A DNA stretch of 64,000 nt from Prevotella sp. (GCA_031285625.1 JAITVV010000092.1:128001-192000), one strand, 5' to 3'; positions 26,756 to 63,363 are shown, numbered from the stretch's first letter. The notes: generated by a model not told the origin, from the sequence alone. Translations and numbers: made by a program.

Positions 26756-26758
26756 TAT

Positions 26759-26973
26759 ACAAGTAAGGTAACAGGCGAGAAGAGACTTGCCTTGCGGCTA
26801 TCGGACGTTCTTACCCCCAGGAGGCAGTGAACCGGCATTCGACATCTCAGGGAGACTTGCGCATTGTGCTTTGCCCTGTCGGTTTTCAACCCGACTTCGC
26901 GGAATCGGTTGCCCGAATCTAAGCTACCTTAGGCCCATTATCGAAGTAACCCTTCTCTACGACACTTACTTGT
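26759..26973 (-). ncRNA. Large Y-RNA-like ncRNA with a 23S rRNA H69-H71-like insert
   Basis: Terminal ACAAGUAAG/CUUACUUGU stem; GUGUCGUAG, GUUACUUCG and CCUGUUAC family motifs; TATCTTTG promoter at 26981-26988. Confidence 0.7.
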
Positions 26974-27000
26974 TATTGTGCAAAGATAGTAAAAAAGAAC

Positions 27001-27189
27001 TTATCGGAAAGACTTCCTCTTCTGAATGGCTCCGGCAACAAGCATCACTAGCCCAAGGCCTGTAGTAAATCCCTGAAAGAAAGCAATTGCTGATATCGTA
27101 TGGTCCGGCGATAAATATTTTAAGATGAAAGACACAGATATTAGAAATAATCCCAAGCTTATTTTCTTATTCAAATTTATGTTTTTCAT
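27001..27189 (-). CDS. Small two-TM membrane protein
   Basis: 62 aa, two hydrophobic segments, directly downstream of the helicase. Confidence 0.5.
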   Translation of the reverse strand: MKNINLNKKISLGLFLISVSFILKYLSPDHTISAIAFFQGFTTGLGLVMLVAGAIQKRKSFR

Positions 27190-27223
27190 GATATGTCATT
27201 TTTATTATATACAAATATAATAA

Positions 27224-29980
27224 CTATCTCCATTTGTTCACTTGTTCCGATGTATTATCATCCGTAAAATTTGCCGAAAGGGCTTTCATTCTGGCCTCTA
27301 ACAGTTGTTTTCTACCTTCAATTGTACGTGTATAAATAAGGTCGCATGGACCAACAAGTTCGAGCCATTGCTGAGAGAAATATTGAGCAAGTTTTTTATT
27401 CCTACCCAAGATCTCAGGTACTGCATGGTAGTCGCGCCGGATTTGTTCTGCAAAGAATTTACTTTTACGTACGATTATATAACGTGGATTTTCAATGACA
27501 TTAACAATTTCTTGCAATGTATCGATAAATACAGCTTGCTCAAAAGTACTTCCTCCATCGAGATAACAATAAATGGCTCCAGCTTCATCAGAATATGCAA
27601 TAACCTTTAGGTTTGCAGGATTAGTAATTATTGTGCCTTGCTTGATTAATGACTTGAGCAACACATTTCCTATTTGTTGAATATCTTTAGAAATATCCCT
27701 GAATTTTATATATAGTTTTAGTGTCTTATAAGTTTGCCTGCCACACATAAATAATCCTGTAAGGGCAGTAAGAAGAATAAAGAAATAGAAATCTTTTGGG
27801 GTTCGCAATGCCTTTATATTGTGTATCAATGATTCAAGAGTCTGAGAAGCAAAAGCTGTAAGTAACAATAGAAGATCGGCTCCAAGATACTTTATCGTCC
27901 GCATCATGTATAGTTGTTTTAGCTTTGGGTATTCGCCCCCTTTTTCGCTATAGAACGGGATCTTTATCTCCTCTACAATTTGTACCCCTCCGGCAATAGC
28001 TTTTGCCCATCTTTCATTTAGGGTGCATCGGTCTCCGGCATTCGTTAATGTAACAAGATTAATTCCTCTGATTGTTTCCTCATTGTATGAATCCCTATGT
28101 ATATTAAGGCGTTGCAATCCATTTTCAATTGTCGGTTCCTCATAGTTTGATAATCCGACAAAGCTTCGAAAACGTCTTCTCATTACTTCCAGGTCGCTAC
28201 CTCCATCTTCCATTGTAGGATCGAGGCAGACAAGATGCCATATATTACTTGTTTTGGATGGATTATCTTTTTGTGTTCTTATTGCACGTCCCCGCATTTG
28301 ATTGGAAAGTACAAAAGATCCTACAAAACTAGCTAAAATCAGACTATTGATTGCCGGAGCATCCCATCCTTCTCCCAACAGGGATTTAGTACCGATAAGA
28401 ATCTCGATCTCCCCTTCCTGAAATAGTTGTGTTATGATTTGTACCAGTTTATTTTTAAGAGTTGCATTTGATTTGATAATCCTGTATCCATCTATATACT
28501 CATATGTGAGCGGATCCAGTTCTGTCATGCCGTGTATGATGCATAATTCATGGAAACGACTAATTGCATCAATAGGTATGATTGTTATTGAACCTGTGAG
28601 TACTCCGAGTTTTTTATTATCATTGTTATATTTACGTAGATGTTCGAATATGGGAATCACCCCAATCTTGCTTAACTCAATGTCTACATTGTCTTTATTG
28701 AGGCATTCACTTCGTATATAATCTGACAAAATAACCATGCGCAAATCAGATTGTAAATGGCTATGTTCAAAATCAACAATCTCTTTTATGCTATTCATCT
28801 TTCCATTACTGGAAATAAGAAGCTTATTGATGCGCTGATTATAAAGCATGTTCACTCTGTTGCGTTCGAGTACTCCATATCGTCTTAATTGATTCATCAA
28901 GGCTTCCTTTTCTTCTTCAAACTCTTCAAAGAGTTCTTTCTCCTGAAAAAGAAAGAAGTTAAGTAATATTTCAATACGTTCATAGAGCAATTCTGGAATA
29001 TCTACTTTGGGTATATCATTTCCCTCATATCCACTTACTATTCTTAAGTGGATAACGGGAATCTCGATATTATTTGCATGCAGGAATATAATACATGATG
29101 TGTATATAGGTAAATTATCATAAATCCAGTCCAGATACTTTTCCGGCTCATTCCATGCAGGGATACTTGCCATTGCATTAATCAAAGTCTCCGAATGGGA
29201 TAGCTTCTGATAAAGATCATTCATGTCTTTTCGAAACTTATTTATCTTTCGGTATTCTTCTTCAGTAGGCATTGAAAAGTAAATATGATCCTGATGAGGG
29301 CACAGATCGCCTTCGATAATTAGTTCCGGAATGGAAATTTCTGTGTCGATACTACCATTCAGGTCGAGGTAGCGTCTCCATTCAGTATAGCTGACATCAT
29401 AGGGTGGAGTGGCCGTAAGACCAACGACAAAGGGATCTAATTGTTCTTTAACCTTTATGAGAGTATGCCACCATTCATTCATCAGATGATGTGCTTCATC
29501 AACAACAATTGTCCCTATTCCTACACTTTTTAGTCCTTTAACGATAGATACCAGAGTGGATTTATTATGAGCTTTGGCTTTGATCGGTTTAGGTTCAGAA
29601 TTTTCATCTTCCGGTTCTTCATCTTCTGCTTGTATTTGTCCGCTACATGATGAGTGTAAGCCTTGATACGTCACTACAGTTATGAATGCAGGCTTGCGGA
29701 TATCGGTTGATATCCATTCGGGAGTGATATGTGTATCTAAGAATAGTTCACAAAAACGTTGTATCCATTGGTTCCGGATGGTTAAAGACGGGGCTAGTAT
29801 TAAAGTCGCTTTATTGATGCGTATTGCTACTTCTAGTCCTAATACTGTTTTACCTGATCCTGGAGGTGCGATAACATGCAAATGCCTGTCTTCCATATGG
29901 AAGTCTAATTCATCCAATACTTTTTGTTGGTATTTTCTCCAGGGATATTTAAATTTTGTATTGGATGGAAAGGTTTTCAT
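27224..29980 (-). CDS. SF2 DEAD/DEAH-box (ResIII-like) helicase with C-terminal TM segments
   Basis: PPGSGKT, DEAHH, GLTATP, LGEGWD and QMRGRAIR motifs; two hydrophobic helices near the C-terminus. Confidence 0.85.
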   Translation of the reverse strand: MKTFPSNTKFKYPWRKYQQKVLDELDFHMEDRHLHVIAPPGSGKTVLGLEVAIRINKATLILAPSLTIRNQWIQRFCELFLDTHITPEWISTDIRKPAFITVVTYQGLHSSCSGQIQAEDEEPEDENSEPKPIKAKAHNKSTLVSIVKGLKSVGIGTIVVDEAHHLMNEWWHTLIKVKEQLDPFVVGLTATPPYDVSYTEWRRYLDLNGSIDTEISIPELIIEGDLCPHQDHIYFSMPTEEEYRKINKFRKDMNDLYQKLSHSETLINAMASIPAWNEPEKYLDWIYDNLPIYTSCIIFLHANNIEIPVIHLRIVSGYEGNDIPKVDIPELLYERIEILLNFFLFQEKELFEEFEEEKEALMNQLRRYGVLERNRVNMLYNQRINKLLISSNGKMNSIKEIVDFEHSHLQSDLRMVILSDYIRSECLNKDNVDIELSKIGVIPIFEHLRKYNNDNKKLGVLTGSITIIPIDAISRFHELCIIHGMTELDPLTYEYIDGYRIIKSNATLKNKLVQIITQLFQEGEIEILIGTKSLLGEGWDAPAINSLILASFVGSFVLSNQMRGRAIRTQKDNPSKTSNIWHLVCLDPTMEDGGSDLEVMRRRFRSFVGLSNYEEPTIENGLQRLNIHRDSYNEETIRGINLVTLTNAGDRCTLNERWAKAIAGGVQIVEEIKIPFYSEKGGEYPKLKQLYMMRTIKYLGADLLLLLTAFASQTLESLIHNIKALRTPKDFYFFILLTALTGLFMCGRQTYKTLKLYIKFRDISKDIQQIGNVLLKSLIKQGTIITNPANLKVIAYSDEAGAIYCYLDGGSTFEQAVFIDTLQEIVNVIENPRYIIVRKSKFFAEQIRRDYHAVPEILGRNKKLAQYFSQQWLELVGPCDLIYTRTIEGRKQLLEARMKALSANFTDDNTSEQVNKWR

Positions 29981-30398
29981 TTGTATTGTTTGAGTAATAA
30001 ATCACAAAGATAATTGAAAAAAGGAATAACTCCTTGTTATCCCTTTAGTCTCTATCTTTTAAAATTCTCCATCCTGGTTGGGAATACATTACTTCCATTA
30101 TGAAAAGCAAAGGGGATTCTATACTCAGCAACTGGGTTATCAACGTAAAGGGATGAATAAACGTTTCCGGGAACGTTTTAATCATGAAGAAACCTTTATA
30201 TTTACCAGGAAGGATAATTTTGATTATGCCTATAAGTGTGTCAATTATTATTGGCATGATGACACAAAAGAAGATGTTGATTTACGTAAAAATTCAAACA
30301 TGATTTTATAGATAAATATATTGAAGGTGCAAGTTTTATGATGCCGGACTATTAAGTGTCTGATAAATTATTGTACTTTTAAAAGAAATTATAATCAT

Positions 30399-31151
30399 AT
30401 GAGAGAAAAGAGGGATTTAAATCTGGCAGTACTGATTGATGCAGATAATGTACCGTATTCTAATATAAAAGGTATGCTGGATGAAATAGCCAAAATAGGT
30501 GTACCAACAATAAAACGTATTTATGGAGATTGGACAAAGCCAACAGTTTCGGGATGGAAGCAGCCGTTACTGGAGCATGCAATCACTCCGATACAACAAT
30601 ATAGCTACACTACGGGAAAAAATGCGACCGATTCTGCAATGATTATTGATGCCATGGATATTCTGCATAGTGACAAAGTAGATGGATTCTGTCTGGTTTC
30701 CAGTGATAGTGACTTTACCCGACTGGCAGTAAGACTCAGGGAATCTGGTATGCAGGTGATCGGTATAGGAGAGAAAAAGACGCCGAATCCATTCATTGTA
30801 GCCTGTGATAAGTTCATCTATATTGAAATTATCGGTGATTCTGAGGATCAGCAGGATACAACAACTTCTGCAACAAAGAAAGATAAAGAAAAGAATATAG
30901 AGCCTGTAAATAAAAAACTTATCAATCTGTTAAAGAGCACAGTGCGTGATCTTGCCGACGATGACGGCTGGGCCTATCTGGGAGATATAGGTAATCTCAT
31001 TATTAAAAAGCGCCCCGATTTTGATTCCCGTAACTATGGTTTCTCCAAGCTTGCAGCTTTAGTAAAGGCGCAAAAGAAGGTATTTGAGATAGATGAACGA
31101 AAGACTGAAAAAGGACACTCGCAATTGGTATATGTGAAAATTAAGGAGTAG
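30399..31151 (+). CDS. NYN (LabA/DUF88) ribonuclease-like domain plus OST-HTH/LOTUS
   Basis: LIDADN, RIYGDW, GKNATD, SSDSDF; C-terminal PDFDSRNYGFSKL. Confidence 0.9.
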   Translation: MREKRDLNLAVLIDADNVPYSNIKGMLDEIAKIGVPTIKRIYGDWTKPTVSGWKQPLLEHAITPIQQYSYTTGKNATDSAMIIDAMDILHSDKVDGFCLVSSDSDFTRLAVRLRESGMQVIGIGEKKTPNPFIVACDKFIYIEIIGDSEDQQDTTTSATKKDKEKNIEPVNKKLINLLKSTVRDLADDDGWAYLGDIGNLIIKKRPDFDSRNYGFSKLAALVKAQKKVFEIDERKTEKGHSQLVYVKIKE

Positions 31152-31152
31152 C

Positions 31153-31848
31153 TCAACCTGCTCCATTTATACAATAAAGCAGGATTTTTCCCTCTTTATT
31201 CTTTCGTATATAATATATTTCAGAAAATTCGGTGATACTTTCTTTTGGGTCTCCACTGTTATAGCTCAAATGATAATTTGAAATATACTCTCCTTGGTAT
31301 TCCTCTCCGGTAAAGAGATGGATAGAGTGTATATAGCCATCGGATGTTTTTAGGGTCGGATTATATGCCTTGTCTTTTATTGCTTTATCAAAATCATATT
31401 TAACTAATAATTGTATAAACTCCTTATCAAAGATTTTACTTGCATTCTCAATAAAGTCCTCTCTATAGAATTTACCATCTTTGCTATTAGCTAGTGCCAC
31501 CTGTTCATCAGTATAATCCGGCGCATAAACTTTAAATCGAAAAACATCCCCAAATAAGGGATATTGTACCATGTCGGCCAGTTTATGATAATCTTTTTTT
31601 AAGAGGTTCTTTTTGAACTCTTTCCAAAAACTGATTTGTTCTTCAGCACTCATTATTTCTGTGGAAGTCATCTCCTTATAAGGATCGTCCTGAATATCTT
31701 TCCGTATAGTAGTTTCGGATATTATAGAATCAGTCAATGATACCACTGAGTCAATTTTTTCAACGGGAGCTGCTTTACTTGTATTGCTCGTACATGAAAA
31801 ACAAATCGCTGAAAATAGTATGAAAGAGAAATAAATCAGTTTGTTCAT
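31153..31848 (-). CDS. Hypothetical lipoprotein
   Basis: Lipobox CFSC. Confidence 0.65.
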   Translation of the reverse strand: MNKLIYFSFILFSAICFSCTSNTSKAAPVEKIDSVVSLTDSIISETTIRKDIQDDPYKEMTSTEIMSAEEQISFWKEFKKNLLKKDYHKLADMVQYPLFGDVFRFKVYAPDYTDEQVALANSKDGKFYREDFIENASKIFDKEFIQLLVKYDFDKAIKDKAYNPTLKTSDGYIHSIHLFTGEEYQGEYISNYHLSYNSGDPKESITEFSEIYYIRKNKEGKILLYCINGAG

Positions 31849-31881
31849 ATGTTTGTAAAGTATGTCTGTATAAAGATAGAT

Positions 31882-31918
31882 AAAATCAGAGCTGAAATAT
31901 TACATTTCAACTCTGATT
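31882..31918 (-). terminator. Probable terminator after rsr and the mini Y-RNA
   Basis: AATCAGAG(c)TGAAAT...ATTTCA(a)CTCTGATT hairpin followed by a U-rich tail on the minus strand. Confidence 0.6.
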
Positions 31919-31925
31919 ATTAAAA

Positions 31926-32007
31926 AAATCTTGTGAAGTAACTATCACAAAGAGGCTAGCAAATTTTAAGTCCGAAGGAACTCTATGCTACGACACTCAC
32001 AAGATTT
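31926..32007 (-). ncRNA. Mini Y-RNA-like stem directly after the Ro60 stop codon
   Basis: AAAUCUUGUGAGUGUCGUAGCAUAGAGUUCCUUCG...CUCUUUGUGAUAGUUACUUCACAAGAUUU; same motifs as the other units. Confidence 0.65.
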
Positions 32008-32012
32008 CTCAT

Positions 32013-33527
32013 TTATAGTTCTATTTTTCTTACTTCGTCCAAAGCGTTCCCACCATTATCTATAGCCGATATGATGTCAAATATTTTATCGGACCAACCA
32101 GCTATCAAATACACATCGTTCTGAGTGATATCCAATGGAGTGTTTCCATAACCGGACAAGTCGAACAGATATAGCTTACTGCTTGGTGATATCTTTTTAT
32201 ATTCATTCCATAGATCAGCTATTTTCTTGTCATTTTTGTTGTTCCACAATTGCAAATCAGTAAACATCATGACTTTATCCATCTGTTGTTTTCTCTTTAT
32301 CAGGTCTTCTATTACCAGATAACCGTTGGTTGCATAGCCTACTTCTCCTTCGCGGCGATAGAAAGCATCCACATTAGACAATATACCTTGTGTAGGTACA
32401 TTTATCACCTTCCACTTATCACCGAACATCCCGGTTATGGCATTTTCGCAGCGTGACTTCAATAGCATAGCCAGCATCAAACCTATATCATAACACAGTA
32501 TTTTACTTTTAGCAGATACCGGACGTTGCATAGAGCCTGATACGTCACATGCTATCAGTACACTGGTGTCAGCATCAAAACCTTTTATATTTTCAGCAGA
32601 TACAGCTACGGCTTTTTCCAATGCATCCAGTACACGGCTTGCATATGCAGACTTCACTTTAGATATTTCACGATACGCAGCCAGAAAACGGAATGGCAAT
32701 TGTTTTGAACGACGTACAGCTTCCGGTGAAGCCAACGCACTGCATACTTTTATGATATGCTCTTTCGAAACATTCGATTCCAGTATATTACGCAAGTTAC
32801 GCATCAATGCCATATAGCCTATTTTACCACTATCTATCAGTTCTTCCCATTTGATGCGGAATGCAGTTCCCTTTTCAGCTTCGGAATCAAATTTTATTTG
32901 ACCCAATGCAGAAAGTTCTGTTTCCCAAGTATATGGTGTTTCCAATGTATCATTTACTATCTTGTTGAACAAAGCCTGTTGGTCTTCATCCTTTGCCTTA
33001 GGGTGTACAAGAAATAGTGCATCACGAAGTTTTATTTCCGCATCACGATTATATTTTGCAAACTGATATTCATCAAACCGGTTGAATGCATTCTGCAATC
33101 CGGCTTGTAGCTGTTTCGACAGACGATTTAGTTTCTTTGTGTCTTGTCTTTCATTAGCAAGCTGGTAGTAGGCCAACAGTTCTGTTATCTCATCTGCACG
33201 CTGCACCACTTGCAATACCATTTTGCTTACAGTAGAGTCTCCTCTGTGTATTTTAGCCAACTCTACAGCCAATACCAATGGAATTGAACGCAGATTCATC
33301 TTCTGGCGTGTATATACAGCCAGCTGTGCTACAAATATCGGGTCACATCGTTTTATCAAACCACGCATTGTTTCAACTCGGGCTTGCGCGCTTTCGTAAA
33401 ACTTGTCACTCAATGCAGAGGTAACGGCAGCAGTATACAATTGCCACTCTGGTGATAGACGGTATGCTTGTGCTCCTTCATAATTTACCACCTTGTTTTT
33501 TCCTTTGTTTCTGAAATTGAATTTCAT
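32013..33527 (-). CDS. rsr: Ro60/TROVE-domain RNA-binding protein with vWA domain
   Basis: VNYEG, FYES, RADE, KYNR, TWETELS, MALMRNLRN, SKQLPFRFLAAY; MIDAS DVSGSM. Confidence 0.93.
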   Translation of the reverse strand: MKFNFRNKGKNKVVNYEGAQAYRLSPEWQLYTAAVTSALSDKFYESAQARVETMRGLIKRCDPIFVAQLAVYTRQKMNLRSIPLVLAVELAKIHRGDSTVSKMVLQVVQRADEITELLAYYQLANERQDTKKLNRLSKQLQAGLQNAFNRFDEYQFAKYNRDAEIKLRDALFLVHPKAKDEDQQALFNKIVNDTLETPYTWETELSALGQIKFDSEAEKGTAFRIKWEELIDSGKIGYMALMRNLRNILESNVSKEHIIKVCSALASPEAVRRSKQLPFRFLAAYREISKVKSAYASRVLDALEKAVAVSAENIKGFDADTSVLIACDVSGSMQRPVSAKSKILCYDIGLMLAMLLKSRCENAITGMFGDKWKVINVPTQGILSNVDAFYRREGEVGYATNGYLVIEDLIKRKQQMDKVMMFTDLQLWNNKNDKKIADLWNEYKKISPSSKLYLFDLSGYGNTPLDITQNDVYLIAGWSDKIFDIISAIDNGGNALDEVRKIEL

Positions 33528-33581
33528 CTCTTTTAATTTTTAATGTTAAGGTCTTAACGACACTCTAATTGTTTGACATTA

Positions 33582-33616
33582 CAAAGATTCAAAAACAAGT
33601 ACGCAGCTTTTTTGCG
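33582..33616 (-). promoter_or_regulatory. CGCA-N7-TGCG box and -7-like element upstream of rsr
   Basis: TACGCAGCTTTTTTGCGTA at 33600-33618; AATCTTTG on the minus strand at 33582-33589. Confidence 0.7.
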
Positions 33617-33904
33617 TAACAAAAACTTTCTTTTAAAACTTCTCATTTTTAACAATTATCATAAAAAAGTAACAAGTTACATCGATCTCCAATATTCAAT
33701 TAATTATTTGATTATTAAATATATGATTCTAACATCAAGCATAAAAAGTGACAAAAGTAACAGGTTTTGCCCATTTTTTATTGTAACCTTATTCTTTTAT
33801 CGATATGCTGACCTAATAAGATAAAGTTTTTAAACAATCTCAAATCTGGTAATTTCATACTGATTATAAAAATAATAAGTGTATTTTTGGCTAAAATTTA
33901 ACAA

Positions 33905-34816: not shown

Positions 34817-34845
34817 TCTTTACATTATCAGAGAAATAATAGAAG

Positions 34846-35904: not shown

Positions 35905-36335
35905 CTATAGATCAGAATAATATATCAGAATTCCTATCTAAAGTTGAAAATATTATTAAGTCTCTTGATGAACTTTCAGGTTTATCAGACAATTGCATTA
36001 AAGAATTCGACGGTACTGAATTTGATGGACAAAGCCAGTTAGCTGGTAAGTTGGATGACCTGTTCCTTATAGCTAGCCACGAAATGGCAACACAACTTGC
36101 TTTCGTAAAAGAAGATATTCTTATCCTTATAAAGTTCATAAAATTCAGAAAAGGATATCCCCAACTATCGGAAACAGAGCTCGAACAAATATTAGACACT
36201 GAGAATCTGGAACTTAAATTTAAAATGGAGATAAAACCTAAATTGAGAGACCATAGTATTCTTGAAATAAAGGAATTATGGAACAATACATTCAACAATA
36301 AATCATTCAAGAAGATAATAAACCGGTTCAAATAA
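35901..36335 (+). CDS. Hypothetical protein; frame open from an ATA at 35901
   Basis: Stop-free frame from ATA 35901 (overlapping the upstream TAG) to TAA 36335; the ORF track starts it late at TTG 36051. Confidence 0.45.
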   Translation: MAIDQNNISEFLSKVENIIKSLDELSGLSDNCIKEFDGTEFDGQSQLAGKLDDLFLIASHEMATQLAFVKEDILILIKFIKFRKGYPQLSETELEQILDTENLELKFKMEIKPKLRDHSILEIKELWNNTFNNKSFKKIINRFK

Positions 36336-36339
36336 AAAA

Positions 36340-36463
36340 TCAGGGTAATAAGGCGAAAAGGCTGATATAAACCGGCGCTTTACTTTAAGCTACGAAATCG
36401 ATAGGTCTTGCACCTATATAATCCGGATCCCAAATCGAAGAAATCCTCTTCTACGACACCTGA
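36340..36463 (-). ncRNA. Y-RNA-like unit 5 of array; degenerate permuted tRNA
   Basis: GUGUCGUAG 5' arm; T-arm AUAGG-UGCAAGA-CCUAU, short CGA/UCG acceptor-like hairpin, D-arm UAGCUUAAAGUAAAGC, CCGG/CCGG stem. Confidence 0.7.
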
Positions 36464-36473
36464 AATTATAAAA

Positions 36474-36611
36474 AACAGAAGTAACAAGCGAAAAGAGCGA
36501 GCGGGGCATGGCTTGCCGGAGTCGAACCGGATAGTCTCGCCGGATTTACGACCTCACTATTCCTCCCCTAAAATTGGTAGCCGAAGTATCTCTCTTCTAC
36601 GACATTCTGTT
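36474..36611 (-). ncRNA. Y-RNA-like unit 4 of array; T-arm plus an unrecognised stem module
   Basis: AACAGAA/UUCUGUU stem, AUGUCGUAG, GAUACUUCG; CCGG-UUCGACU-CCGG T-arm; AUAGU/ACUAU and GGGG/CCCC stems. Confidence 0.7.
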
Positions 36612-36621
36612 ATATTTAATC

Positions 36622-36745
36622 AACAAGGCAACAAACGAACAGAGACTATAATAGCTTGCTCTACCCACTGAGCTACACCCGAAGATGACAGGAATCGAAC
36701 CCGTGACCCAGTTAACCGAAGTAACTCTATTCTACGGCACTTGTT
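36622..36745 (-). ncRNA. yrlA: YrlA-type Y RNA (unit 3): circularly permuted tRNA mimic
   Basis: GUGCCGUAG arm, then GGUC-ACGGG-UUCGAUU-CCUGU (T-arm), CAUC-UUCG-GGUG (closed acceptor), UAGCUCAGUGGGUAGAGCA (D-arm). Confidence 0.85.
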
Positions 36746-36763
36746 TGTACTAATTCACAAATA

Positions 36764-36880
36764 AACAAGGTAACAAGCATAAAGAGCAAACTTTGTCCAA
36801 CCTCGGACGTTGCGGGAGTCGAACCCTTTTCATTAATTGGCGTTTAGCAAACGAAGTAACTCTTTACTACGACACTTGTT
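36764..36880 (-). ncRNA. Y-RNA-like unit 2 of array; T-loop hairpin plus two other hairpins
   Basis: AACAAGUGUCGUAGUAAAGAG/CUCUUUAUGCUUGUUACCUUGUU stem; GGG-UUCGACU-CCC; GUCCGA-GG-UUGGAC; CGUUU-GCU-AAACG. Confidence 0.7.
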
Positions 36881-36888
36881 ATATTATT

Positions 36889-37030
36889 TAAACAAGGCAA
36901 CAAACGAGAAAAGCCTTTTTGATCTGGTGTCCTATTTTACTAGACGACTACAACTTACATTGCTGGCTGTTTTTTCAACAGCGTTTCCAGAGTGGATTAC
37001 GAAGTATCTCTTCCCTACGGCACTTGTTTA
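36889..37030 (-). ncRNA. Y-RNA-like unit 1 of array; degenerate permuted tRNA
   Basis: GUGCCGUAG arm; CUGG/CCAG stem, GCUGU-UGAAAAA-ACAGC (T-arm geometry), CAGC/GUUG, UCGUCUAGUAAAAUAGGACA (D-arm-like). Confidence 0.7.
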
Positions 37031-37062
37031 TTTATTTCAATGATCTTTTCTTATTTATACTG

Positions 37063-37096
37063 CAAAGTAATAACCTTGATGTGCAATCTTTTTGCG
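37063..37096 (-). promoter_or_regulatory. Promoter of the Y-RNA array with a variant CGCA-N7-TGCG box
   Basis: TGCAATCTTTTTGCG at 37082-37096; TTACTTTG on the minus strand at 37063-37070. Confidence 0.6.
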
Positions 37097-37160
37097 CAAT
37101 GAAATATTTCTTGAAAAAAAGCTATTCTAACATATTGAAGATACTTACATCAAAACATTA

Positions 37161-45688: not shown

Positions 45689-45715
45689 AATAATTTGGCT
45701 AGGTTAATATATTAG

Positions 45716-48244: not shown

Positions 48245-48257
48245 AATTATTAATCCT

Positions 48258-49646: not shown

Positions 49647-49652
49647 TTCTTA

Positions 49653-49880: not shown

Positions 49881-49942
49881 TCAACTTCTTTTTTTATTAT
49901 GAACGATTCTCTAGTAAGATACCCCCAAAAAAGATTCAATAT

Positions 49943-50560: not shown

Positions 50561-50753
50561 GGTATAGTAGATTAGATGTGGTTACTCCTCAAAAATGTAT
50601 GGACAAAGATATATACACAAAATGCCTACTTCTTTTTCGAAGTAGGCATTTTGGTAAACGTTTTTCAAAACACAACCTACATAACACAATGATTACAAAT
50701 AAATTACCAAAAACACATAATTAGATTTTGGTAAATGATATTGAATCATTTTT

Positions 50754-52358
50754 TCAAGAAAAAGTACCTATTTTTCTTACTTCTTCTTCAAAATTTTCAC
50801 TTTCAATAGCCTTCCCTTTTACCTTACTTTTATAATTGTAGATAGTCTGCATAGAGTACCGGAGAAATACTGCTATCTGGTTCACATCGGTAATACCTAA
50901 ACGTATAAGGGCAAATATGCGAAGTTCTGTATTCAACTGCCCTTTTTCCAATTTATAACGTTCATCTTCTTTCAATAAAGCATTAAACTTTTCTACGAAA
51001 TCGGGATAAATCTTAAAAAATGCCTTATCAAATGTTTCATATAGTTCCTCTACATTCTTTTCCAGTCCGCGTGTAGATGATGTAAGTTTATACAGGTCAT
51101 CAATCTGGCCTGCTTTTATTTTTCTGTTTACATTTTTTCTATAATCATCCAGCTGATCGATATAGACAGCACACTGATTCATAAAGTATCCGATGTACTT
51201 CTCTTTTATAAGATTTGCTTCATCCAGACTTTTATTTACATCCGATAGCTGTTGATTCATAGTTTTCAGGCTCTTCCTTGCTCTGGATACAATCTTTATT
51301 TGCCTATAGATAAAATATAAGGCAATGATAAGGATAACAACAAACAAACTTGTAAGTACAGCATAAGTACGAAGGTTTTGTTTCTGTTGCTCTATTTTCT
51401 GAAGATATGTGTCTTCTATAATGGGCTGTACCCTGGCAATAATTGTATTACGAAACCTGGAATTATAAAAATTTGCATCATCCAAAGCAGCTTTGATATA
51501 TGTATATGCCCTGTCAACATCCCCTTTTTCATACAAATTGATAGCCAAAGCCAGTAATGCTTCATTTTCCTTAACGGCTAGCCTCGTATCTGTTATCGAG
51601 GCCAGAATAAGATATTTTTCTTCCTGTTCTGTATTTTTCAGATTTCCGTGAACTATAGCAAGACTCATGGCAGCCATGGCATAGCTATGCGTATAAGGCT
51701 CTTGTTGTGAAAATATATCTGCCAAAATCTTATAAGCTTCCTGATACCTTCGCTCATCCTGCAGTTTAAATGCTTCTTCTTTCAGATACATTTCAGAGCT
51801 CTTATCAAGGAAAGACATGATAGTATCCCTATAATGCCTCTCTTCTTCCAGATATTTAATTCTATATTTGGAATCGTCTGTATATTTTATAAGATTGCCA
51901 TAATATCTGATATAAGTCCAACAGTACATAAACTTCATATCCAGAGATAATCCTTCAAGCTTTATTGTATTCAATACTTCCAATGCTTCAGTAAATAGTC
52001 CGGAAAGAGATAATACAAATGAATACCTCAGACGGCTCTGACTGATAAGTTCCGGATTGCTCAATTTTTCTGAAATGATTATATTCTTGTTTATATATGT
52101 TATAGCCGAATCACATATAAACGATTCATATTCGGCAATAATACCTTCATTTATATGGTACTCTTCTTCCAGAGGAAGATTGTCTATCAGTTTGGATTTT
52201 AGTGTATTTATTTTTGAAATTTTTTCGGAAGCATATTGCGGGCGGTTGGATATAGTCTTATCCAATACTTTCAATAATGAATCTATTTCATTTCCAAAAC
52301 ATGTATTTATTGGGATGTATGTAAAACAAAATATAAGGAGTAGAACCTTTTTCATCAT
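50754..52358 (-). CDS. SusR-like (DUF6377) membrane-spanning regulator
   Basis: Periplasmic TPR-like region, TM helix, LNTELRIFALIRLGI...YSMQTIYNY. Confidence 0.85.
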   Translation of the reverse strand: MMKKVLLLIFCFTYIPINTCFGNEIDSLLKVLDKTISNRPQYASEKISKINTLKSKLIDNLPLEEEYHINEGIIAEYESFICDSAITYINKNIIISEKLSNPELISQSRLRYSFVLSLSGLFTEALEVLNTIKLEGLSLDMKFMYCWTYIRYYGNLIKYTDDSKYRIKYLEEERHYRDTIMSFLDKSSEMYLKEEAFKLQDERRYQEAYKILADIFSQQEPYTHSYAMAAMSLAIVHGNLKNTEQEEKYLILASITDTRLAVKENEALLALAINLYEKGDVDRAYTYIKAALDDANFYNSRFRNTIIARVQPIIEDTYLQKIEQQKQNLRTYAVLTSLFVVILIIALYFIYRQIKIVSRARKSLKTMNQQLSDVNKSLDEANLIKEKYIGYFMNQCAVYIDQLDDYRKNVNRKIKAGQIDDLYKLTSSTRGLEKNVEELYETFDKAFFKIYPDFVEKFNALLKEDERYKLEKGQLNTELRIFALIRLGITDVNQIAVFLRYSMQTIYNYKSKVKGKAIESENFEEEVRKIGTFS

Positions 52359-52384
52359 GCAAGTTTAGGATATTGTAAAAGATT

Positions 52385-52480
52385 TAGGTCTCAGACCTAT
52401 TTATTACTTTAATAGGTAAGCAACTATCAATCGTTATGATTTGAAAATGTATCATTAAATACTTATTACTAACATAAGCT
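52385..52480. repeat. AGGTC(T/A)CAGACCT-headed intergenic repeat; related copies near 52612 and 63046
   Basis: Palindromic head plus about 90 bp of similar AT-rich sequence shared with 63046-63135. Confidence 0.55.
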
Positions 52481-52574
52481 TCGTACAAACTTACATAATT
52501 AATAGGAGAAATAATATCTTATTATAAAAAAATGCACCACGCTTATCAGCATAAGTGAAGGTAAAAAATAGTAA

Positions 52575-52611
52575 ATCCGGCAAAGAGATTAATGTCTTCT
52601 TTGCCGGATTA
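52575..52611 (-). terminator. Hairpin terminator or attenuator after susD
   Basis: AATCCGGCAAAGA...TCTTTGCCGGATT. Confidence 0.65.
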
Positions 52612-52680
52612 AGGTCACAGACCTATTTCATTACTTTAGTTAGTAGAACAATTATCAGTTATGATTCGTATATACCAGTA

Positions 52681-54495
52681 TTACCAACCCGGATTCTGTG
52701 TAAGATTCGGATTTGACATCATTTCGATATAAGGGAATGGCCATAACAATAGTTTGTCATTCCAAGAGCCCTTATCTGCTACGTCATCATACATTACATC
52801 ATAATTACTCAAATCCCATGGATCAGCAGGACGTGGAGCATTCGGATTTTTAAATCCTGCAAGCCATGCAAAAGCTGTTCCCCAATAATCTCCAACTCCA
52901 TTGTCTGTGGTATCAAGAATAAAATTCTTATAGTCTCCCCAACGGATTAAATCTACATAACGGTCACAATCTTCCATACACAGTTCGAAACGACGTTCCG
53001 CCTTAATCCCGTAGGTAGCATTATTCATATCCAGAGAAGGAGCATTTGTAAGACCGGCACGATTACGTACTTTATTTAAAGCCTGTAGGCCCGTAATATT
53101 AGCAGTTCCTTCAGAACCTGATGAACATACTGCTTCTGCATATAAAAGTAATACATTGGCATAACGCATAAGAGGGAAATTGGTACGGTTACCACTTGCC
53201 TGACCCGAAGCATAGCGGCCTTCGTCAAGATCGTCAAGATGGTTATAATATTTCATCCGGAAATATCCCTGATTACTAAATAACCTGCCACTTGTCATAA
53301 CACCACGGGCAGCACTGTTTGCATAAGAAAAATCATTATATACTTCATAGTAGGTAGCCAAAGACATGCGACGGCGTACACTATTTCCATCATGCTTGCA
53401 AAAAGCAGTACCAAAGGCACGGGTAGGATTAATGAATCCCCAACCATCAGCTTGAGAGTTAGTACAATCACCCGGAGTAAATAGCTGGTCGTTACGCCAG
53501 CCTGTATATGCCCAAAACCAGTAAGGTTCGGTATTGGTAATAGTATTGTTATCACCATCAGTGTCTATCTCCAGTAGATATTCGTCGCAAAAGTCAGCCT
53601 CTGTACGGAAAAGTGTCAGATACTCATAACTTTCACTTCCATCAACCCATGTAGCAGACTTACTTTCTTTATACAGTGTAGTATTTGCTCCATAAGAGCT
53701 TGGGCCCATTGTTTTGGTTTTTGTCCAAAGGTCATATTTATTCGAATTAATAACTTTTGCCAGCCATACTTTAGCATTCTCATAATCATTCTGCCACATA
53801 TAGCCTTGCCCCTTAAAGGCATAACAAGCCTCAGCTGTCCAACGTCCACCGATTTGCCTTTGTCCGCCTAATCCGCTTTTGGATGGAAGATCAGCAGCAG
53901 CTTCATCAAATTGTTGCATTATCCATATCCAACTTTCTGCCGGAGTAGAGTTTCCTGGTGTAAACGAATGGTTAATTCCATCCAGAACATGATCAACTAA
54001 AGGCGCTGATCCCCATAGCTGAGTAAGACGCATCATAGCCCATGCCCGCCATGCTTTAGCCTCAGCAATCACTCGTTTTCTTTCCGGTGAGCCATCATTC
54101 AACTTATCTACGATCATATTACTTTTGTAAATGATATTATAAAAACGTTGATACATATCCTTATATGCATTGTTCTCCGAATCATCTACCATCTTCGCCA
54201 TCTTCTGATAGTCGCCACCATCACCCGAGCTAGAACCTCCAGGCCAGAAGTCTGCTGTTTTTACAGTAGTAGAAGCGATATAGTGAATCCCCCAATCTCC
54301 GGTAACAAGATTCTTAGCAGTAGCATATATTTCACCTACCAATTGAGTAGCAGTTGCATCATCAGCATTTGCATATGTTTCATCTACCGGAATCACCCCC
54401 AATTGTGGAATGTCAAGTTCATTATCATTACAGGAAACCAACATGATACCTGTAAACAAGCTGATTATGACTAGTGTTATAATATATTTTCTCAT
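52681..54495 (-). CDS. SusD/RagB family glycan-binding lipoprotein
   Basis: Lipobox LVSC; AEAKAWRA, LMRYANVLLLYAEA, LNKVRNRA, ERRFEL, DLIRWG, NPNLTQNPGW. Confidence 0.93.
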   Translation of the reverse strand: MRKYIITLVIISLFTGIMLVSCNDNELDIPQLGVIPVDETYANADDATATQLVGEIYATAKNLVTGDWGIHYIASTTVKTADFWPGGSSSGDGGDYQKMAKMVDDSENNAYKDMYQRFYNIIYKSNMIVDKLNDGSPERKRVIAEAKAWRAWAMMRLTQLWGSAPLVDHVLDGINHSFTPGNSTPAESWIWIMQQFDEAAADLPSKSGLGGQRQIGGRWTAEACYAFKGQGYMWQNDYENAKVWLAKVINSNKYDLWTKTKTMGPSSYGANTTLYKESKSATWVDGSESYEYLTLFRTEADFCDEYLLEIDTDGDNNTITNTEPYWFWAYTGWRNDQLFTPGDCTNSQADGWGFINPTRAFGTAFCKHDGNSVRRRMSLATYYEVYNDFSYANSAARGVMTSGRLFSNQGYFRMKYYNHLDDLDEGRYASGQASGNRTNFPLMRYANVLLLYAEAVCSSGSEGTANITGLQALNKVRNRAGLTNAPSLDMNNATYGIKAERRFELCMEDCDRYVDLIRWGDYKNFILDTTDNGVGDYWGTAFAWLAGFKNPNAPRPADPWDLSNYDVMYDDVADKGSWNDKLLLWPFPYIEMMSNPNLTQNPGW

Positions 54496-54512
54496 AATGT
54501 TATTGTTTTAGA

Positions 54513-57500
54513 TTAGAATGAAAGATTGAGCCCAAATGTTACAGTTTTCGGACTTGGATAATCTCCGTAATCCATACCCATTGCTCCGGTTTCACTTAGA
54601 GTGCCTTTCGTATTCGGAGGAGTCACACTTACAGACTCAGGATCCATACCCGGATATTTTGTAAAAGTGAAGAAGTTATCCAAAGAAGCAAAAACACGCA
54701 GTCTGGATATTTCAATCTTCCTTGTAAGTGAAGCCGGTATAGTATAGCCAAGTTGTAATTGTTTGATCTTGAAATATGAACCGCTCATAAGCTGTGCCGA
54801 TGATTTGGCAAACTTATCGTCAGTTGGATTCGGATGCGGATATTTTGCTCCCGGACCTTTCACATCCCACGAATCTGTCCAGAATTCTGCCAATTGATTA
54901 GCAGTTGCCGATCCACGCATACTAACCACCATTTTTCCACCTGAGCTACCGCTACCAAAAGCTGTAAAGTCAAATCCTTTGTAAGCTGCGGATATTGTTA
55001 GCCCATAATAAAACTTAGGTATAGCAGAACCTAAGAATACTTTATCAGATTCATTTATTTCACCTTCTCCTGTTTGATCTTTATATAGAGCTTTGCCAGT
55101 ATCAGGATCCGGACCCAGATATTCATAGCCATAATAGCTCCACACCGGTTGTCCTTTGTAGAAATAAACGAATCCATTAGAATATCCATCCTCAATAGGT
55201 TTCTGAACTTCATCCAGTTTTGTAACCTTATTATGCAAAGTTGCCAGATTAGCACTCACACTGTAAGAAAAATCATCTATTTTATCTTGCCAGCCCAGAT
55301 CAAATTCAAATCCTGCGTTATTTACTTTACCCACATTCTTCCACATCTCTGTAGTTCCTGTAGAAAGAGGAGGTGTTATTTTTACTAGCTGCCCAGTTGT
55401 ATTCTTATTATAATAATCGACAGTAAGAGTAAGACGATCATTCAGGAATCTGGCATCAATACCCGCATCTATTTGTTTAGATTCTTCCCAGTTCAACATA
55501 GGGTTTGTCAATGTATTAGACGGAGAGATTGTGTTTACAAGGCTTCCTCCGATAGGATAATAACCCGGAAGGTTCAAAGATGAACTCCACCGATACCCGC
55601 TAAGAACATTTACGTTACCATTTACCCCATATGAAGCACGTACTTTCAGGAAAGATAAAGTTTTAGGACTTATATTCTCCATAAATTTTTCATTACTAAC
55701 AGTCCATCCGGCAGATACAGAAGGGAAATATCCCCAGCGATTATCTTTTGATAGTTTAGAATTGTCAAAAGCATCTGCACGGAAATTAGCTTGTATCATA
55801 TAACGATTATCATATGCATAGCCTATACGTCCGAAGTAACTCATTTTCTTACTTTTACCTACTGATCCGCCTACACCATCATTAGCGCCGCTTGAAGAAT
55901 AGTCCAAATAATGGAAGTTTGGTGCACCATTTATAAATTCGTCTGTGGTACCTCTGGTATAGTTTCTCCAATTAGATGAATATGACATCCCAGCCATCGC
56001 ATATACATTATGCTTGTTGAAAGTCTTATTATAGTTTGCAAAGTTTTCCCATTCATAAAATCTTTCAGTAGCTGTTTCTGCTTCGTAGCTTAGCTTCGAG
56101 CGTGGAGAAATAGAGAAATACACAGGAACTCCATAATATTTATAATCTTCGGATCCTAAACGGTAGCCCAAACGGGTAGTAAATACAAAACCTTTGATCG
56201 GTTTGAAATTCAATGATGTTACCCCTCTGATATTAAAATCCTTATGTTTACTGTTCTGACTATAATACCATGTCATAGGATTTGTATTATCAGCATTGTA
56301 TTTAGGAACAGCAGCATAATCTCCGTTCTCATTTTTCATAAGCATATCATCACCTTTAGACGTAATCAGGTCTTTCATATATTGTGGCAAATTATCCTTA
56401 TCATAGAAAAGAGGAGTCAACGGATCATAGTAATAAGCAGAGTTAAATCCTTGTTTATTAATTCCATCCCCTACTCTTGAGTATTCTGAGTTTTCGATTG
56501 AATTATTCGAAGAGAATTCGAGCCACGGCTTAATATTATAAGTAGCGTTCAGTTGGAAAGAAAGACGATTTATATAATCTTTATCTCCATAGTACATACC
56601 ATCATTTTTCATATAAGATACTGATGAGTATAGAGTACCATTATCATTTCCTCCTTCAAAACCTACTGTATGACGCTGGAAAGAGCCATTATCTCCATAG
56701 AGAGCTTCGCTCCAATCTGTATCTGTAACGCCATCCCAGTCATTCACCAAAGAGTTACCGGCTGCCTTGTTATAGTCAACATATTGTTGAGCATTCATCA
56801 TTTTGGGCTTGCGGGCCAATGAAGTAATCCCGTAGTTAAAATCATAGAAGATTTTGCTTTCCCCTTTTGTTCCGCTTTTGGTTGTGATAAGTACCACTCC
56901 ATTACCGGCTTCTACTCCATAGATAGCTGCAGATGCACCATCTTTAAGTATCTCCATCGATTTTATGTTATTTGGATCCAGATAGGCAATATCTTTTACT
57001 TTAAGACCATCGACCACATAAAGAGGTTCTGAATTTCCTGAAGAGTTGGAGCTTATACCGCGTATACGAACAGCAGGACTGGTTCCCGGTGCGGATGAAC
57101 CACCCATGACTTGTACACCGGCTGCTTTTCCCTGAAGGGCTTGTTGTACGTTTTCAACAGAACGTGATCCAAGAGCATCTCCCTTTACCGAAGTTATGGC
57201 TCCTGTTACATCGCTTTTCTTTTGTACACCGTAACCAATCACGACTACATCATCTAGCATTTTTGTATCTTCTTCAAGAATAATGTGAAGAGATGTTTGA
57301 TTCCCTACAGATATAAGTTGAGGGCTAAATCCCAAAAGCGAGACTTTAATTTTTTGACTAGACGATACATTTTCCAATGTAAATGTACCATCATCTAAGG
57401 TTAGAGTTCCCTGGGTAGTTCCCTCGATCACCACAGTTGCTCCAATAATAGGTTCTCCCGTATTATCGACAACTGTTCCTGTCAGATTCCTCGTTTGCGC

Positions 57501-57581
57501 AACAGTCTGGCTGCCTGCAAACGGAATTGCAAGAATCATAATCAGTGTTATTAAAGTCAATTTCAATAAGCTTTGTTTCAT
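54513..57581 (-). CDS. SusC/RagA TonB-dependent transporter
   Basis: VVVIGYG, PLYVVDG, ILKDGASAAIYG, NGVVLITTK, FPSVSAGW, C-terminal aromatic residue. Confidence 0.95.
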   Translation of the reverse strand: MKQSLLKLTLITLIMILAIPFAGSQTVAQTRNLTGTVVDNTGEPIIGATVVIEGTTQGTLTLDDGTFTLENVSSSQKIKVSLLGFSPQLISVGNQTSLHIILEEDTKMLDDVVVIGYGVQKKSDVTGAITSVKGDALGSRSVENVQQALQGKAAGVQVMGGSSAPGTSPAVRIRGISSNSSGNSEPLYVVDGLKVKDIAYLDPNNIKSMEILKDGASAAIYGVEAGNGVVLITTKSGTKGESKIFYDFNYGITSLARKPKMMNAQQYVDYNKAAGNSLVNDWDGVTDTDWSEALYGDNGSFQRHTVGFEGGNDNGTLYSSVSYMKNDGMYYGDKDYINRLSFQLNATYNIKPWLEFSSNNSIENSEYSRVGDGINKQGFNSAYYYDPLTPLFYDKDNLPQYMKDLITSKGDDMLMKNENGDYAAVPKYNADNTNPMTWYYSQNSKHKDFNIRGVTSLNFKPIKGFVFTTRLGYRLGSEDYKYYGVPVYFSISPRSKLSYEAETATERFYEWENFANYNKTFNKHNVYAMAGMSYSSNWRNYTRGTTDEFINGAPNFHYLDYSSSGANDGVGGSVGKSKKMSYFGRIGYAYDNRYMIQANFRADAFDNSKLSKDNRWGYFPSVSAGWTVSNEKFMENISPKTLSFLKVRASYGVNGNVNVLSGYRWSSSLNLPGYYPIGGSLVNTISPSNTLTNPMLNWEESKQIDAGIDARFLNDRLTLTVDYYNKNTTGQLVKITPPLSTGTTEMWKNVGKVNNAGFEFDLGWQDKIDDFSYSVSANLATLHNKVTKLDEVQKPIEDGYSNGFVYFYKGQPVWSYYGYEYLGPDPDTGKALYKDQTGEGEINESDKVFLGSAIPKFYYGLTISAAYKGFDFTAFGSGSSGGKMVVSMRGSATANQLAEFWTDSWDVKGPGAKYPHPNPTDDKFAKSSAQLMSGSYFKIKQLQLGYTIPASLTRKIEISRLRVFASLDNFFTFTKYPGMDPESVSVTPPNTKGTLSETGAMGMDYGDYPSPKTVTFGLNLSF

Positions 57582-58259
57582 AATCTTAAAAAAATTAATA
57601 ATTTATTGTTTAGTAGTTCATTGTATCCGGCGTCTATCACTCTCTCGTCAACCGGATGAGGTCGTAGTATGGATTTCTTAGTTACATTCATAAAGATTTA
57701 TTGGTTAGTATTAGGTGAATTATTTCATAGCATAAGATATTTTAGTGTTATCATCTTATGAACGACTTAGGATTAAAATACCACTAAAACATTTTTCAAT
57801 TTCGTGAAAATAAGGGCTTAAAGAATTAAAAGGCCGGCTGATTAAATAAATAATCAATCGACCTGTATTTTAGAAGTTAATCTTACAATAACTTATTCTA
57901 TTTTAGCTTTTTGTAAAACTCTGTAAGTTTATCAACTGAATGATGCATCTTTGGATATAAAAGAGATCAGCTTAACAGTAAGACCCTCAAGAGCAGCAGC
58001 CTCTATTTTATGATGACCATCCAACAAACAGTTGGCAAATCCCCAATGTGATACAATTCCATCTTTAGGAGTTGTAAAACTTAGTCTCGATTGTGATTTT
58101 CTGACTTCGAGATGTTTGTGATCTATATTACTTTCCATATTCAATCTTATTTACCATACATTAAAAAAGTGACAAAAGTAACAACTTATACATATATTTT
58201 ATCTGTTACTTTTTCTTTCTGTCCCATTTATATTAGACAATCTTAATTATATATTCTTG

Positions 58260-58455
58260 TACTCCTAATGAGATTCGAACTCATATTCCCTTTCGGGCAG
58301 TACGGCTCTAAATACGCTTCCCTACTTTTCAGTTAAGAATTTCGGTGCATCTGTAAAATCTACCCATAACAACGCGCAGCTATTACGGGGCTATCCATAC
58401 ACTCTATGGTAAGTCTAAATTTTGCCACAGGCTTTTCCTTTTAAGCTATAGGAGC
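58260..58455 (-). ncRNA. tRNA-like RNA with a 117-nt structured insertion in the anticodon loop
   Basis: Acceptor GCUCCUA/UAGGAGU plus A, D-arm GCUU/AAGC, UGUGGC/GCCGUA stem, CCC-GAAA-GGG variable arm, T-arm AUGAG-UUCGAAU-CUCAU. Confidence 0.7.
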
Positions 58456-58462
58456 AAATTAT

Positions 58463-58613
58463 AAACGAGGTAACAGGCGAAAAGAGACTGTTTATCCTGC
58501 TCTACCACTGAGCTACACTCCCGTTAATTTGTATTACTGAGAGAGTGAGGGGACTCGAACCCCCGACCCGGGCATTAAAAGTGCGAAGTAACTCTAATCT
58601 ACGACACTCGTTT
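58463..58613 (-). ncRNA. yrlA: YrlA-type Y RNA: circularly permuted tRNA mimic
   Basis: AAACGAGUGUCGUAG...GUUACUUCG; GGGGG-UUCGAGU-CCCCU; CACUCUC/GGGAGUG closed acceptor; UAGCUCAGUGGUAGAGCA; CCUGUUACCUCGUUU. Confidence 0.85.
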
Positions 58614-58650
58614 TATGCTTTGTATATGAATGATCGCTTGTTTGATGATA

Positions 58651-63288: not shown

Positions 63289-63363
<75 letters not shown>

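Follow-up and report, generated by a model that had tools for sequence, protein, structure and literature searches.

Ro60 and its Y RNAs are conserved from bacteria to humans, and the role of the variable part is known for few Y RNAs. The RNAs are modular, with a Ro60-binding module joined to an effector module, and in the Xenopus Ro60–Y RNA structure the contacts are carried by the 5' strand (Wang et al. 2018 preprint). In bacteria, YrlA is defined by a GNCGAAN0-1G motif close to the 5' end, a YUAY with which the module begins, and the order T arm, acceptor-like hairpin, D arm; 355 YrlAs are counted in 276 genomes, and loci with several of them are mentioned (Chen et al. 2014, PMC4201824). 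Here we analyze a stretch of 64,000 nucleotides (nt) from Prevotella sp. (GCA_031285625.1, JAITVV010000092.1:128001-192000), called the window below. Its minus strand carries eight units, U1 to U8, that share one helical handle, enclose a range of inner modules, and accompany rsr, the gene for Ro60 (TROVE family). We conclude that the units are very probably genes for Ro60/Rsr-binding Y RNAs, forming a Bacteroidia branch of the YrlA/YrlB kind.

An earlier note on this DNA had placed eight Y-RNA-like units on the minus strand, and all eight were recovered where it put them, both by tracing helices and with R1, a covariance model built from the eight units in which only the handle helices count as structure (Table 1). 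All units have in common the handle motif TGYCGTAG..CTTCG. Scanned with at most one mismatch, the 5' motif TGYCGTAGNNNRGNNNTNCTTCG hits the window eight times, in every case on the minus strand, whereas 100 dinucleotide shuffles averaged 0.00 matches. The same eight matches, and no others, were found in the whole genome (4,843,028 bases). R1 also returned exactly these units genome-wide, at 74.6–116.6 bits. The units are spread over 32 kilobases (kb): U3 to U7 form a tandem array with spacers of about 6–16 nt, and U8 lies 21 kb from it.

The handle has a constant layout. From 5' to 3', each unit consists of a terminal helix (P1, 5–14 pairs), a bulged U, a G-C pair plus a Y-R pair, an asymmetric loop with CGUAG on the 5' side opposite YGYYUGUU on the 3' side, a purine/pyrimidine helix of about seven pairs (P2), the motif (U/A)U(A/U/C)CUUCG, and the variable module. 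CGUAG is invariant in the eight window units, and GYCGUAG is nearly so in relatives, where a few copies have GUAA. Across 64 units from 10 genomes, standard pairs fill 90.9% of the cells at 18 handle pairs, compared with 73.6% in shuffles and 47–58% when the partner strand is slid. Changes on both sides of a pair number 233 versus 76 in shuffles, and none of 500 shuffles scored as high. The Y-R pair, for instance, is U-A in 34 of the 64 units and C-G in 27. The 64-unit alignment was fitted to R1, which favors structure; in view of the slide controls and of how many pair types occur, the handle helices are nonetheless secure. Thus the co-varying terminal helix, the second purine/pyrimidine helix and the CUUCG motif described in the earlier note all hold, in the alignment of the eight and in the covariation over 64 units. 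An alternative hairpin pairing CGUAG with CUUCG was considered and dropped, as the GUAA and CUUCA variants in relatives are uncompensated.

The units track TROVE. Among 170 genomes of the family, TROVE was found in 10, and these same 10 are the only ones with at least five motif matches. The 160 TROVE-negative genomes have 0–2 matches each, every one of them with a mismatch; a reversed-pattern control gives matches at this level too. Applied to the fetched regions of the 10 TROVE-positive genomes, R1 found 64 units that score at least 52 bits; below them, the best score drops to 17.4 bits. Units per genome were 8, 6, 8, 6, 8, 5, 5, 8, 5 and 5, with one extra copy, in G048, seen by motif only. 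Arrays thus occur in 10/10 TROVE-positive and 0/160 TROVE-negative genomes of the family, the co-occurrence for which a covariance-model search had been proposed. In the phylum, 401 evenly sampled genomes include 22 that are TROVE-positive. Here every genome with at least two exact motif matches (G170, G292, G327, G371, G439 and G503) has TROVE, and the matches lie within about 2 kb of it on the same strand. Single exact matches occur in one further TROVE-positive genome (G323) and in three TROVE-negative ones. The exact motif is absent from one TROVE-positive genome of the same class and from 13 of other classes; the handle as written therefore belongs to this class. Bacteroides thetaiotaomicron, used as a control in the TROVE searches, carries a Ro60 gene. 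Stems independent of TROVE, an outcome that the earlier note had named as counting against it, are thus not what these counts show. The note's reading of the units as Y-RNA-like genes that are linked to Ro60, alike in their handle and varied in the modules inside it, is supported.

How closely do the units resemble described Y RNAs? The YrlA RNAs of Salmonella Typhimurium, Mycobacterium smegmatis and others are encoded beside rsr on the same strand and have paired ends with a G-N-C-G-purine-rich 5' motif, as here. U2 begins 6 nt after the rsr stop codon and the array lies 2.8–3.5 kb upstream, so U2 to U7 fall within 4 kb of rsr on the same strand. As in YrlA, the module begins with a YUAY-like element (UUAC fits YUAY), and in U5 and U8 it then runs through T arm, acceptor-like hairpin and D arm; the Rfam YrlA model aligns the two arms of U5 and U8 at GGGUUCGAnUCC and GUAGCUCAGUGGUAGAGC. 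This arm order is complete in U5 and U8, present with variant loops in U7 and U3, and absent from U1, U2, U4 and U6. At relaxed thresholds, Rfam YrlA (RF02553) matches U5 with 35.2 bits (expect value, E, 1e-4) and U8 with 34.3 bits, against a gathering score of 69, and Rfam tRNA gives weak matches of 23–29 bits (U7, 23.2; gathering score, 29). Hence the Rfam check suggested in the earlier note left every unit below its gathering score and only U5 and U8 with sub-threshold YrlA matches. The units differ from YrlA in these scores, about half the gathering score, in the GYCGUAG motif, in an extra invariant CUUCG after P2, and in that six of the eight carry other modules.

Other described Y RNAs resemble particular units. 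YrlB of Salmonella is short and follows rsr in rsr-yrlBA-rtcBA (Chen et al. 2014; Hughes et al. 2020, PMC7790460); U2, a handle-only unit, is like it in length and position. Yrn1 of Deinococcus radiodurans keeps the T stem-loop and has no full D arm (Chen et al. 2014, PMC4201824), which recalls U4 and a module class found in relatives (class F, below). Yrn1 tethers Rsr to PNPase via its loops, a partnership with no known parallel among the window units. The vertebrate RNAs hY1, hY3, hY4 and hY5 offer a parallel as paralogs with one bulged Ro60-binding stem and differing loops (Wang et al. 2018 preprint). They are polymerase III transcripts of dispersed genes and have no tRNA-like modules; no homology with the window units is shown.

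Several observations weigh against assigning the units to the Y RNAs. At gathering thresholds, Rfam finds only one tRNA-His in the window and none of the units; ARAGORN, too, reports only this tRNA-His, at 63290. GYCGUAG departs from the published GNCGAAG by one base (U for the first A), and its docking on Ro60 is putative, argued by analogy. U1 (5 kb) and U8 (25 kb) are farther from rsr than the 4-kb rule of Chen et al. 2014 allows, and U1 has no copy in the window scan of the promoter element described below. Single-sequence folding energies are not unusual, with z scores from -2.28 to +1.52. Two module classes, B and E, are without known counterpart, and for them 'effector module' is merely a label. 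In the fetched flanks (6–10 kb) of the nine other TROVE-positive genomes of the family, rsr is present in all nine, and the other neighboring genes each recur in 1–3; because of this low recurrence, gene order points to no fixed protein partner. Finally, public runs labeled as RNA (two as recorded, one as guessed) were rejected as support for expression, since they yielded multi-kb Logan contigs covering both strands at flat depth.

We clustered the 64 modules of the 10 genomes and folded each resulting class. About eight classes emerged, each kept across 2–10 genomes with compensatory pairs, and most are tRNA mimics. Class A-long (U8; 10/10 genomes) is a YrlA-type mimic with a seven-pair acceptor-like helix and an A/U-rich loop of 25–30 nt. 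Class A-short (U5), also a permuted tRNA mimic of YrlA type, has an acceptor-like hairpin with a UUCG loop and shows 10 compensatory pairs in seven sequences. Class B (U6; 10/10 genomes, 11 copies) consists of a GGGG/CCCC helix, an AUAGU/ACUAU helix that surrounds a covarying hairpin, and a T-arm-like element, CCGGUUCGACUCCGG; seven of its pairs are compensatory. Class C (U7; eight genomes) combines a stem of five pairs, a T arm whose loop reads GUGCAAU, and acceptor-like and D-arm-like hairpins (eight compensatory pairs); the variant T loop of U7 is GGUGCAAGACC. Class C2 (U3), a variant of C that clusters with L049:6897-7039 of G035, reads by eye as tRNA-like in its order, with a D-arm-like hairpin and, where the T arm would be, a plain hairpin. 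Class D1 (U4; three genomes, including G016 and G035) has a T-arm-like hairpin, GGGUUCGACUCCC, and a second hairpin.

Class D2, found in five genomes and not in the window, reads by eye as a tRNA mimic opened in the D loop and not at the anticodon. Its elements run, again by eye, from the 3' half of the D arm through a GNRA-capped anticodon-like hairpin, the T arm and an acceptor-like hairpin to the 5' half of the D arm, a permutation unlike that of YrlA (examples in relatives: L045:8733-8879, L046:7139-7285, L042:8595-8723 and L052:10644-10783). Class E (U1; the window genome plus G009, G016, G023 and G035) is a module of 165 nt that is not tRNA-like and is highly similar among these genomes. 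Class F, with four genomes by R1 and the motif-only copy of G048, consists of a T arm alone. Class G (U2) comprises short, TROVE-adjacent units with nearly no module, in six genomes including G009, G016, G020, G023 and G048.

These classes bear on two points of the earlier note. Its statement that the enclosed modules are all different is slightly overstated: one YrlA-type module is shared by U5 and U8, and U3 groups loosely with U7, which leaves about six or seven classes for the eight units. Its term 'interchangeable', taken as ongoing swapping, finds no support, for the class-specific P1 is constant across genomes. Because each class retains its own P1 sequence from genome to genome, the classes point to old paralogs and not to recent shuffling.

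We compared class profiles with 23S and 16S rRNA, tmRNA and RNase P RNA, taking the rRNAs of relatives as the reference for 23S, since the window genome's own 23S is absent from the assembly. Classes A and D2 matched only the T arm of tmRNA (7–9 bits), and classes B, D1 and F gave nothing above shuffles. A resemblance of class C to 23S positions 1447-1503 (9.8 bits, E 0.002, 12-base identity) was set aside as too weak after ten tests. The class-E profile scored 11.4 bits against 23S (E 3e-4), and no score above 4.7 bits came from 20 shuffled reference sets. The sequence AUAAYGRNCCUAAGGUAGC is common to all five copies of the class. In four copies, 17–18 of the 19 bases are identical to a relative's 23S rRNA (17/19 for U1), and in the G035 copy 29 of 30 bases are (E 1.7e-7). 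Mapped through the annotated E. coli 23S gene, the stretch corresponds to about 1909-1938, which covers the helix 69 loop with its 3' strand and the first part of helix 70. In Smith-Waterman comparisons of the five class-E modules with 23S, four lie within the shuffle range (48.8–52.5 versus null maxima of 56.8–63.2). Only the G035 module exceeds its shuffles (81.3 versus 60.2), driven by the 30-base match. The 23S likeness of the U1 class is a lead rather than demonstrated mimicry, and outside the stretch no rRNA likeness is shown.

An array of this kind is not itself exceptional. Beside TROVE in five more Bacteroidia genomes, which belong to three other families, R1 finds 4–5 matches in tandem. 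With these arrays and the 355 YrlAs in 276 genomes (PMC4201824), the earlier note's view that characterized loci hold only one to a few Y RNAs proves overstated; a multi-copy Y RNA array is normal. Particular to this locus are eight units over 32 kb, the breadth of conserved classes, including ones that are not tRNA-like, and a shared promoter element. The locus thus holds a richly diversified version of an RNA class already known, rather than a system of a new kind. In the literature searched, we found no description of Y RNAs from Bacteroidetes; 'Bacteroidetes' combined with 'YrlA' matched 0 papers, and what other searches listed were only reviews on immunology or vesicles. The main text of Chen et al. 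2014, its supplementary tables lying outside this scope, has no word starting with 'bacteroid'. Likewise, the main texts of B. thetaiotaomicron transcriptome papers and of a 2026 review contain no mention of Y RNA, Ro60, Rsr, TROVE, tRNA-like or YrlA.

Upstream sequences tie the units to rsr and to repair genes. The short inverted repeat CGCAAAAANNNTGCR has four matches in the window versus 0.62 expected, before rsr, the array, U8 and the Hen1-Pnkp operon (Table 1). The whole genome holds six exact copies, including these four. Over 17 sequences, 30 copies were found: 16 lie 57–75 nt before the first unit of an array, and 10 lie upstream of rsr, one in each of the 10 genomes. This distance to the arrays is constant across the 10 genomes, which lends indirect support to expression of the units as small RNAs. 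Through CGCAAAAANNNTGCR, rsr and the Y RNA arrays are linked to the repair genes Hen1-Pnkp. It is probably a shared promoter/operator element of a regulator, and we regard it as a candidate for that role. U1 has a different upstream box, TATCTTTG, at 26988-26981, which fits the Bacteroides -7 consensus. A sigma-70 promoter scan returned 44 sites against 44.9 expected, that is, chance, with a model ill-suited to this group. Terminator-like sites in the region were no more frequent than in shuffles (five found, 6.7 expected); the hairpin that would close rsr-U2 is a pattern match. We infer four transcription units: rsr with U2, the U3–U7 array, U8 with the RNA that follows it, and U1 alone. Because the array spacers are only about 6–16 nt, U3 to U7 are probably made as one precursor.

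The rsr product is identified by its TROVE match. Its Ro60 von Willebrand factor A (vWA) domain scores 27.4 bits (E 3.8e-6), marginally below the Pfam cut-off of 27.7, and NCBIfam Rsr gives 48 bits against a cut-off of 900. The rsr mRNA may itself carry something like a handle. In its leader, GAGUGUCGUUAAG resembles the 5' handle strand; GCCGUUAC-CUCUGCAUUG, at about codons 33-39, resembles the 3' strand, so that ribosome-binding site and start codon could lie enclosed between these strands. Of the 10 genomes listed, 9 retain the leader motif, G035 not being recovered. R1 scores the leader at only 15–15.4 bits, in G027, G033 and G048, and covariation is weak. This handle-like leader hints at autoregulation by Ro60.

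The island that holds the units also encodes an RNA ligase, an HD-kinase, Hen1, a split Pnkp, a ResIII helicase, a NYN-LOTUS protein, an FkbM-type methyltransferase and RlaP. RNA ligase and HD-kinase form a second gene set (16872-18932, plus strand), 4 kb upstream of Hen1-Pnkp. The ResIII/DEAD helicase gene occupies 27224-29980, and in two public runs the contigs pass cleanly over 27270-30098 while matching the rest of the region. Related strains thus lack the helicase gene, which looks as if it had been inserted between U1 and the gene for NYN-LOTUS. Open reading frames at 31153-31848 and 35912-36331 have no family match and no counterpart in the fetched flanks (6–10 kb) of the other genomes, and we do not count them as parts of the system. 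Between the array and U8 lies a polysaccharide utilization locus (37161-57581, minus strand) with GH130, GH92, an extracytoplasmic function (ECF) sigma factor, DUF6377, SusD and SusC among the genes checked, which locus may have been inserted into an older, compact Ro60 island.

Directly after U8 comes a further RNA, of 196 nt, which has tRNA-like arms and no handle. Its T arm is GAGUUCGAAUCUC, and about 150 nt of structured RNA lie between its D and T arms. Copies 77–92% identical to it directly follow a Y RNA unit in G035, G016, G023, G009 and G048. Of the 54 pairs in the consensus fold, 12 show compensatory changes. Neither ARAGORN nor Rfam reports anything at 58260-58455.

Table 1. Positions of the Y RNA units, rsr and associated features in the window (numbered from its first base)
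Feature	Position	Strand	Basis and remarks
U1	26759..26973	-	Helix tracing; R1 26757-26975, 104.3 bits; 215 nt; class E
U2	31926..32007	-	Helix tracing 31924-32009; R1 31927-32006, 74.6 bits; class G, short
U3	36889..37030	-	Helix tracing; R1 36886-37033, 109.3 bits; class C2; first of the five-unit array
U4	36767..36881	-	Ends read from sequence; R1 36759-36885, 110.6 bits; class D1
U5	36622..36745	-	Helix tracing; R1 36617-36750, 116.6 bits; class A-short
U6	36474..36611	-	Helix tracing; R1 36470-36615, 95.9 bits; class B
U7	36340..36463	-	Helix tracing; R1 36334-36469, 95.8 bits; class C; last in the array, then a U run
U8	58463..58613	-	Helix tracing; R1 58459-58617, 101.5 bits; class A-long
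rsr (Ro60/TROVE), 504 amino acids	32013..33527	-	Pfam TROVE, E 6.5e-31
rsr leader and first codons	33411..33565	-	GAGUGUCGUUAAG at 33565-33553, like the 5' handle strand; GCCGUUAC-CUCUGCAUUG at 33428-33411, like the 3' strand
CGCAAAAANNNTGCR before rsr	33602..33616	-	Window motif scan
CGCAAAAANNNTGCR 63 nt upstream of U3 (array)	37082..37096	-	Window motif scan
CGCAAAAANNNTGCR 67 nt upstream of U8	58670..58684	-	Window motif scan
CGCAAAAANNNTGCR before Hen1-Pnkp operon	22039..22053	+	Window motif scan
Terminator-like hairpin closing rsr-U2	31884..31918	-	16-pair stem, then U-rich tail; pattern match only
tRNA-like RNA, 196 nt, no handle	58260..58455	-	Directly after U8; acceptor, D and T arms
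Hen1_N match	22102-23412	+	
Pnkp ligase domain	23442-24626	+	Separate gene behind Hen1
Pnkp kinase-phosphatase	24784-25698	+	Separate gene behind Hen1

A working model can be drawn for these Y RNAs. The five-unit precursor would be cut into single RNAs, and the ends of each RNA would close into the handle, which, by analogy with the GNCGAAG motif of YrlA, may dock on Ro60. The handle would then present the inner module, which in U5, U8, U7 and U3 is a permuted tRNA mimic, in U4 a hairpin like a T arm, in U6 a four-helix domain that bears a T arm, in U1 the 165-nt domain with its 23S-like stretch, and in U2 almost nothing. Presented in this way, modules might gate the Ro60 ring or cavity, or tether Ro60 to partners that recognize the tRNA elbow or, for U1, perhaps a 23S feature. 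Because a promoter element is common to all four, the rsr-U2, U3–U7 and U8 units and Hen1-Pnkp may be switched on together, as an RNA-damage regulon.

A different function for the same RNAs is that of decoys. On this account, Ro60-bound Y RNAs that mimic tRNA and rRNA features absorb or report a ribotoxin, either an anticodon nuclease or an rRNase, and Pnkp-Hen1 and the nearby ligases mend the damage. The mimicry of tRNA in several topologies, the near-23S stretch of the U1 class and the promoter element held in common with Hen1-Pnkp would all suit such a role, and a competitive-inhibitor role has been proposed for YrlA (Hughes et al. 2020, PMC7790460). Yet the anticodon loop, the usual target of anticodon nucleases, is absent from most modules, its place being taken by the handle or linker in classes A and C. 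Salmonella YrlA, moreover, was not cleaved by the damage-induced nuclease (PMC7790460), the U1 class is not measurably rRNA-like beyond 19–30 bases (four of five copies within the shuffle range), and no toxin gene was identified in the window. We consider decoys as the main function possible, on the unlikely side, and this reading gains no support of its own here.

Could the units instead be spares, produced by tandem duplication, with modules that drift while only the handle and the tRNA-like core matter? Copy number does vary (5–8 within the family, 4–5 in other families), classes are missing from some genomes (E is present in five of 10, F in four or five, D1 in three), and G023 and G154 contain near-identical duplicates. 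Against this stand classes A-long and B, present in 10/10 genomes, and the 165-nt E module, highly similar across its five genomes. Each class also keeps its own sequence, P1 and helices with compensatory changes, which is unlike drift. Since each class is conserved in this way, we judge redundancy to be quite improbable. Lower still is the chance that the units are not Ro60 partners at all, and are tRNA-derived repeats, tRNA pseudogenes or processing signals in an RNA-repair island. T-arm and D-arm motifs, the weak Rfam tRNA matches of 23–29 bits and the handle-less, truly tRNA-like RNA directly after U8 invite that thought. But ARAGORN calls none of the units, the order of the arms is permuted, the constant and covarying part is a handle foreign to tRNA, and presence follows TROVE (10/10 versus 0/160 genomes). 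The balance of this evidence makes such an origin highly improbable, and we retain the assignment to Ro60-binding Y RNAs.

The observations can also be joined into one more speculative scheme, which we put forward tentatively and think unlikely to hold in full. Here Ro60 would carry a panel of mimics of translation RNAs, with U1 as a decoy, sensor or recruiter for the helix 69/70 junction and the others as permuted tRNAs, and the handle in the rsr mRNA would add autoregulation. Free Ro60 would shut off its own synthesis through this handle unless Y RNAs titrate it. If true, this would be a self-balancing, damage-induced ribonucleoprotein system made of one protein and about seven RNA 'heads'.

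For annotation, the consequence is that Rfam catches none of these RNAs. For the biology of the family, the arrays provide a natural test set: relatives of B. thetaiotaomicron keep one docking stem and about eight conserved heads, each of which could be used as bait for a partner.

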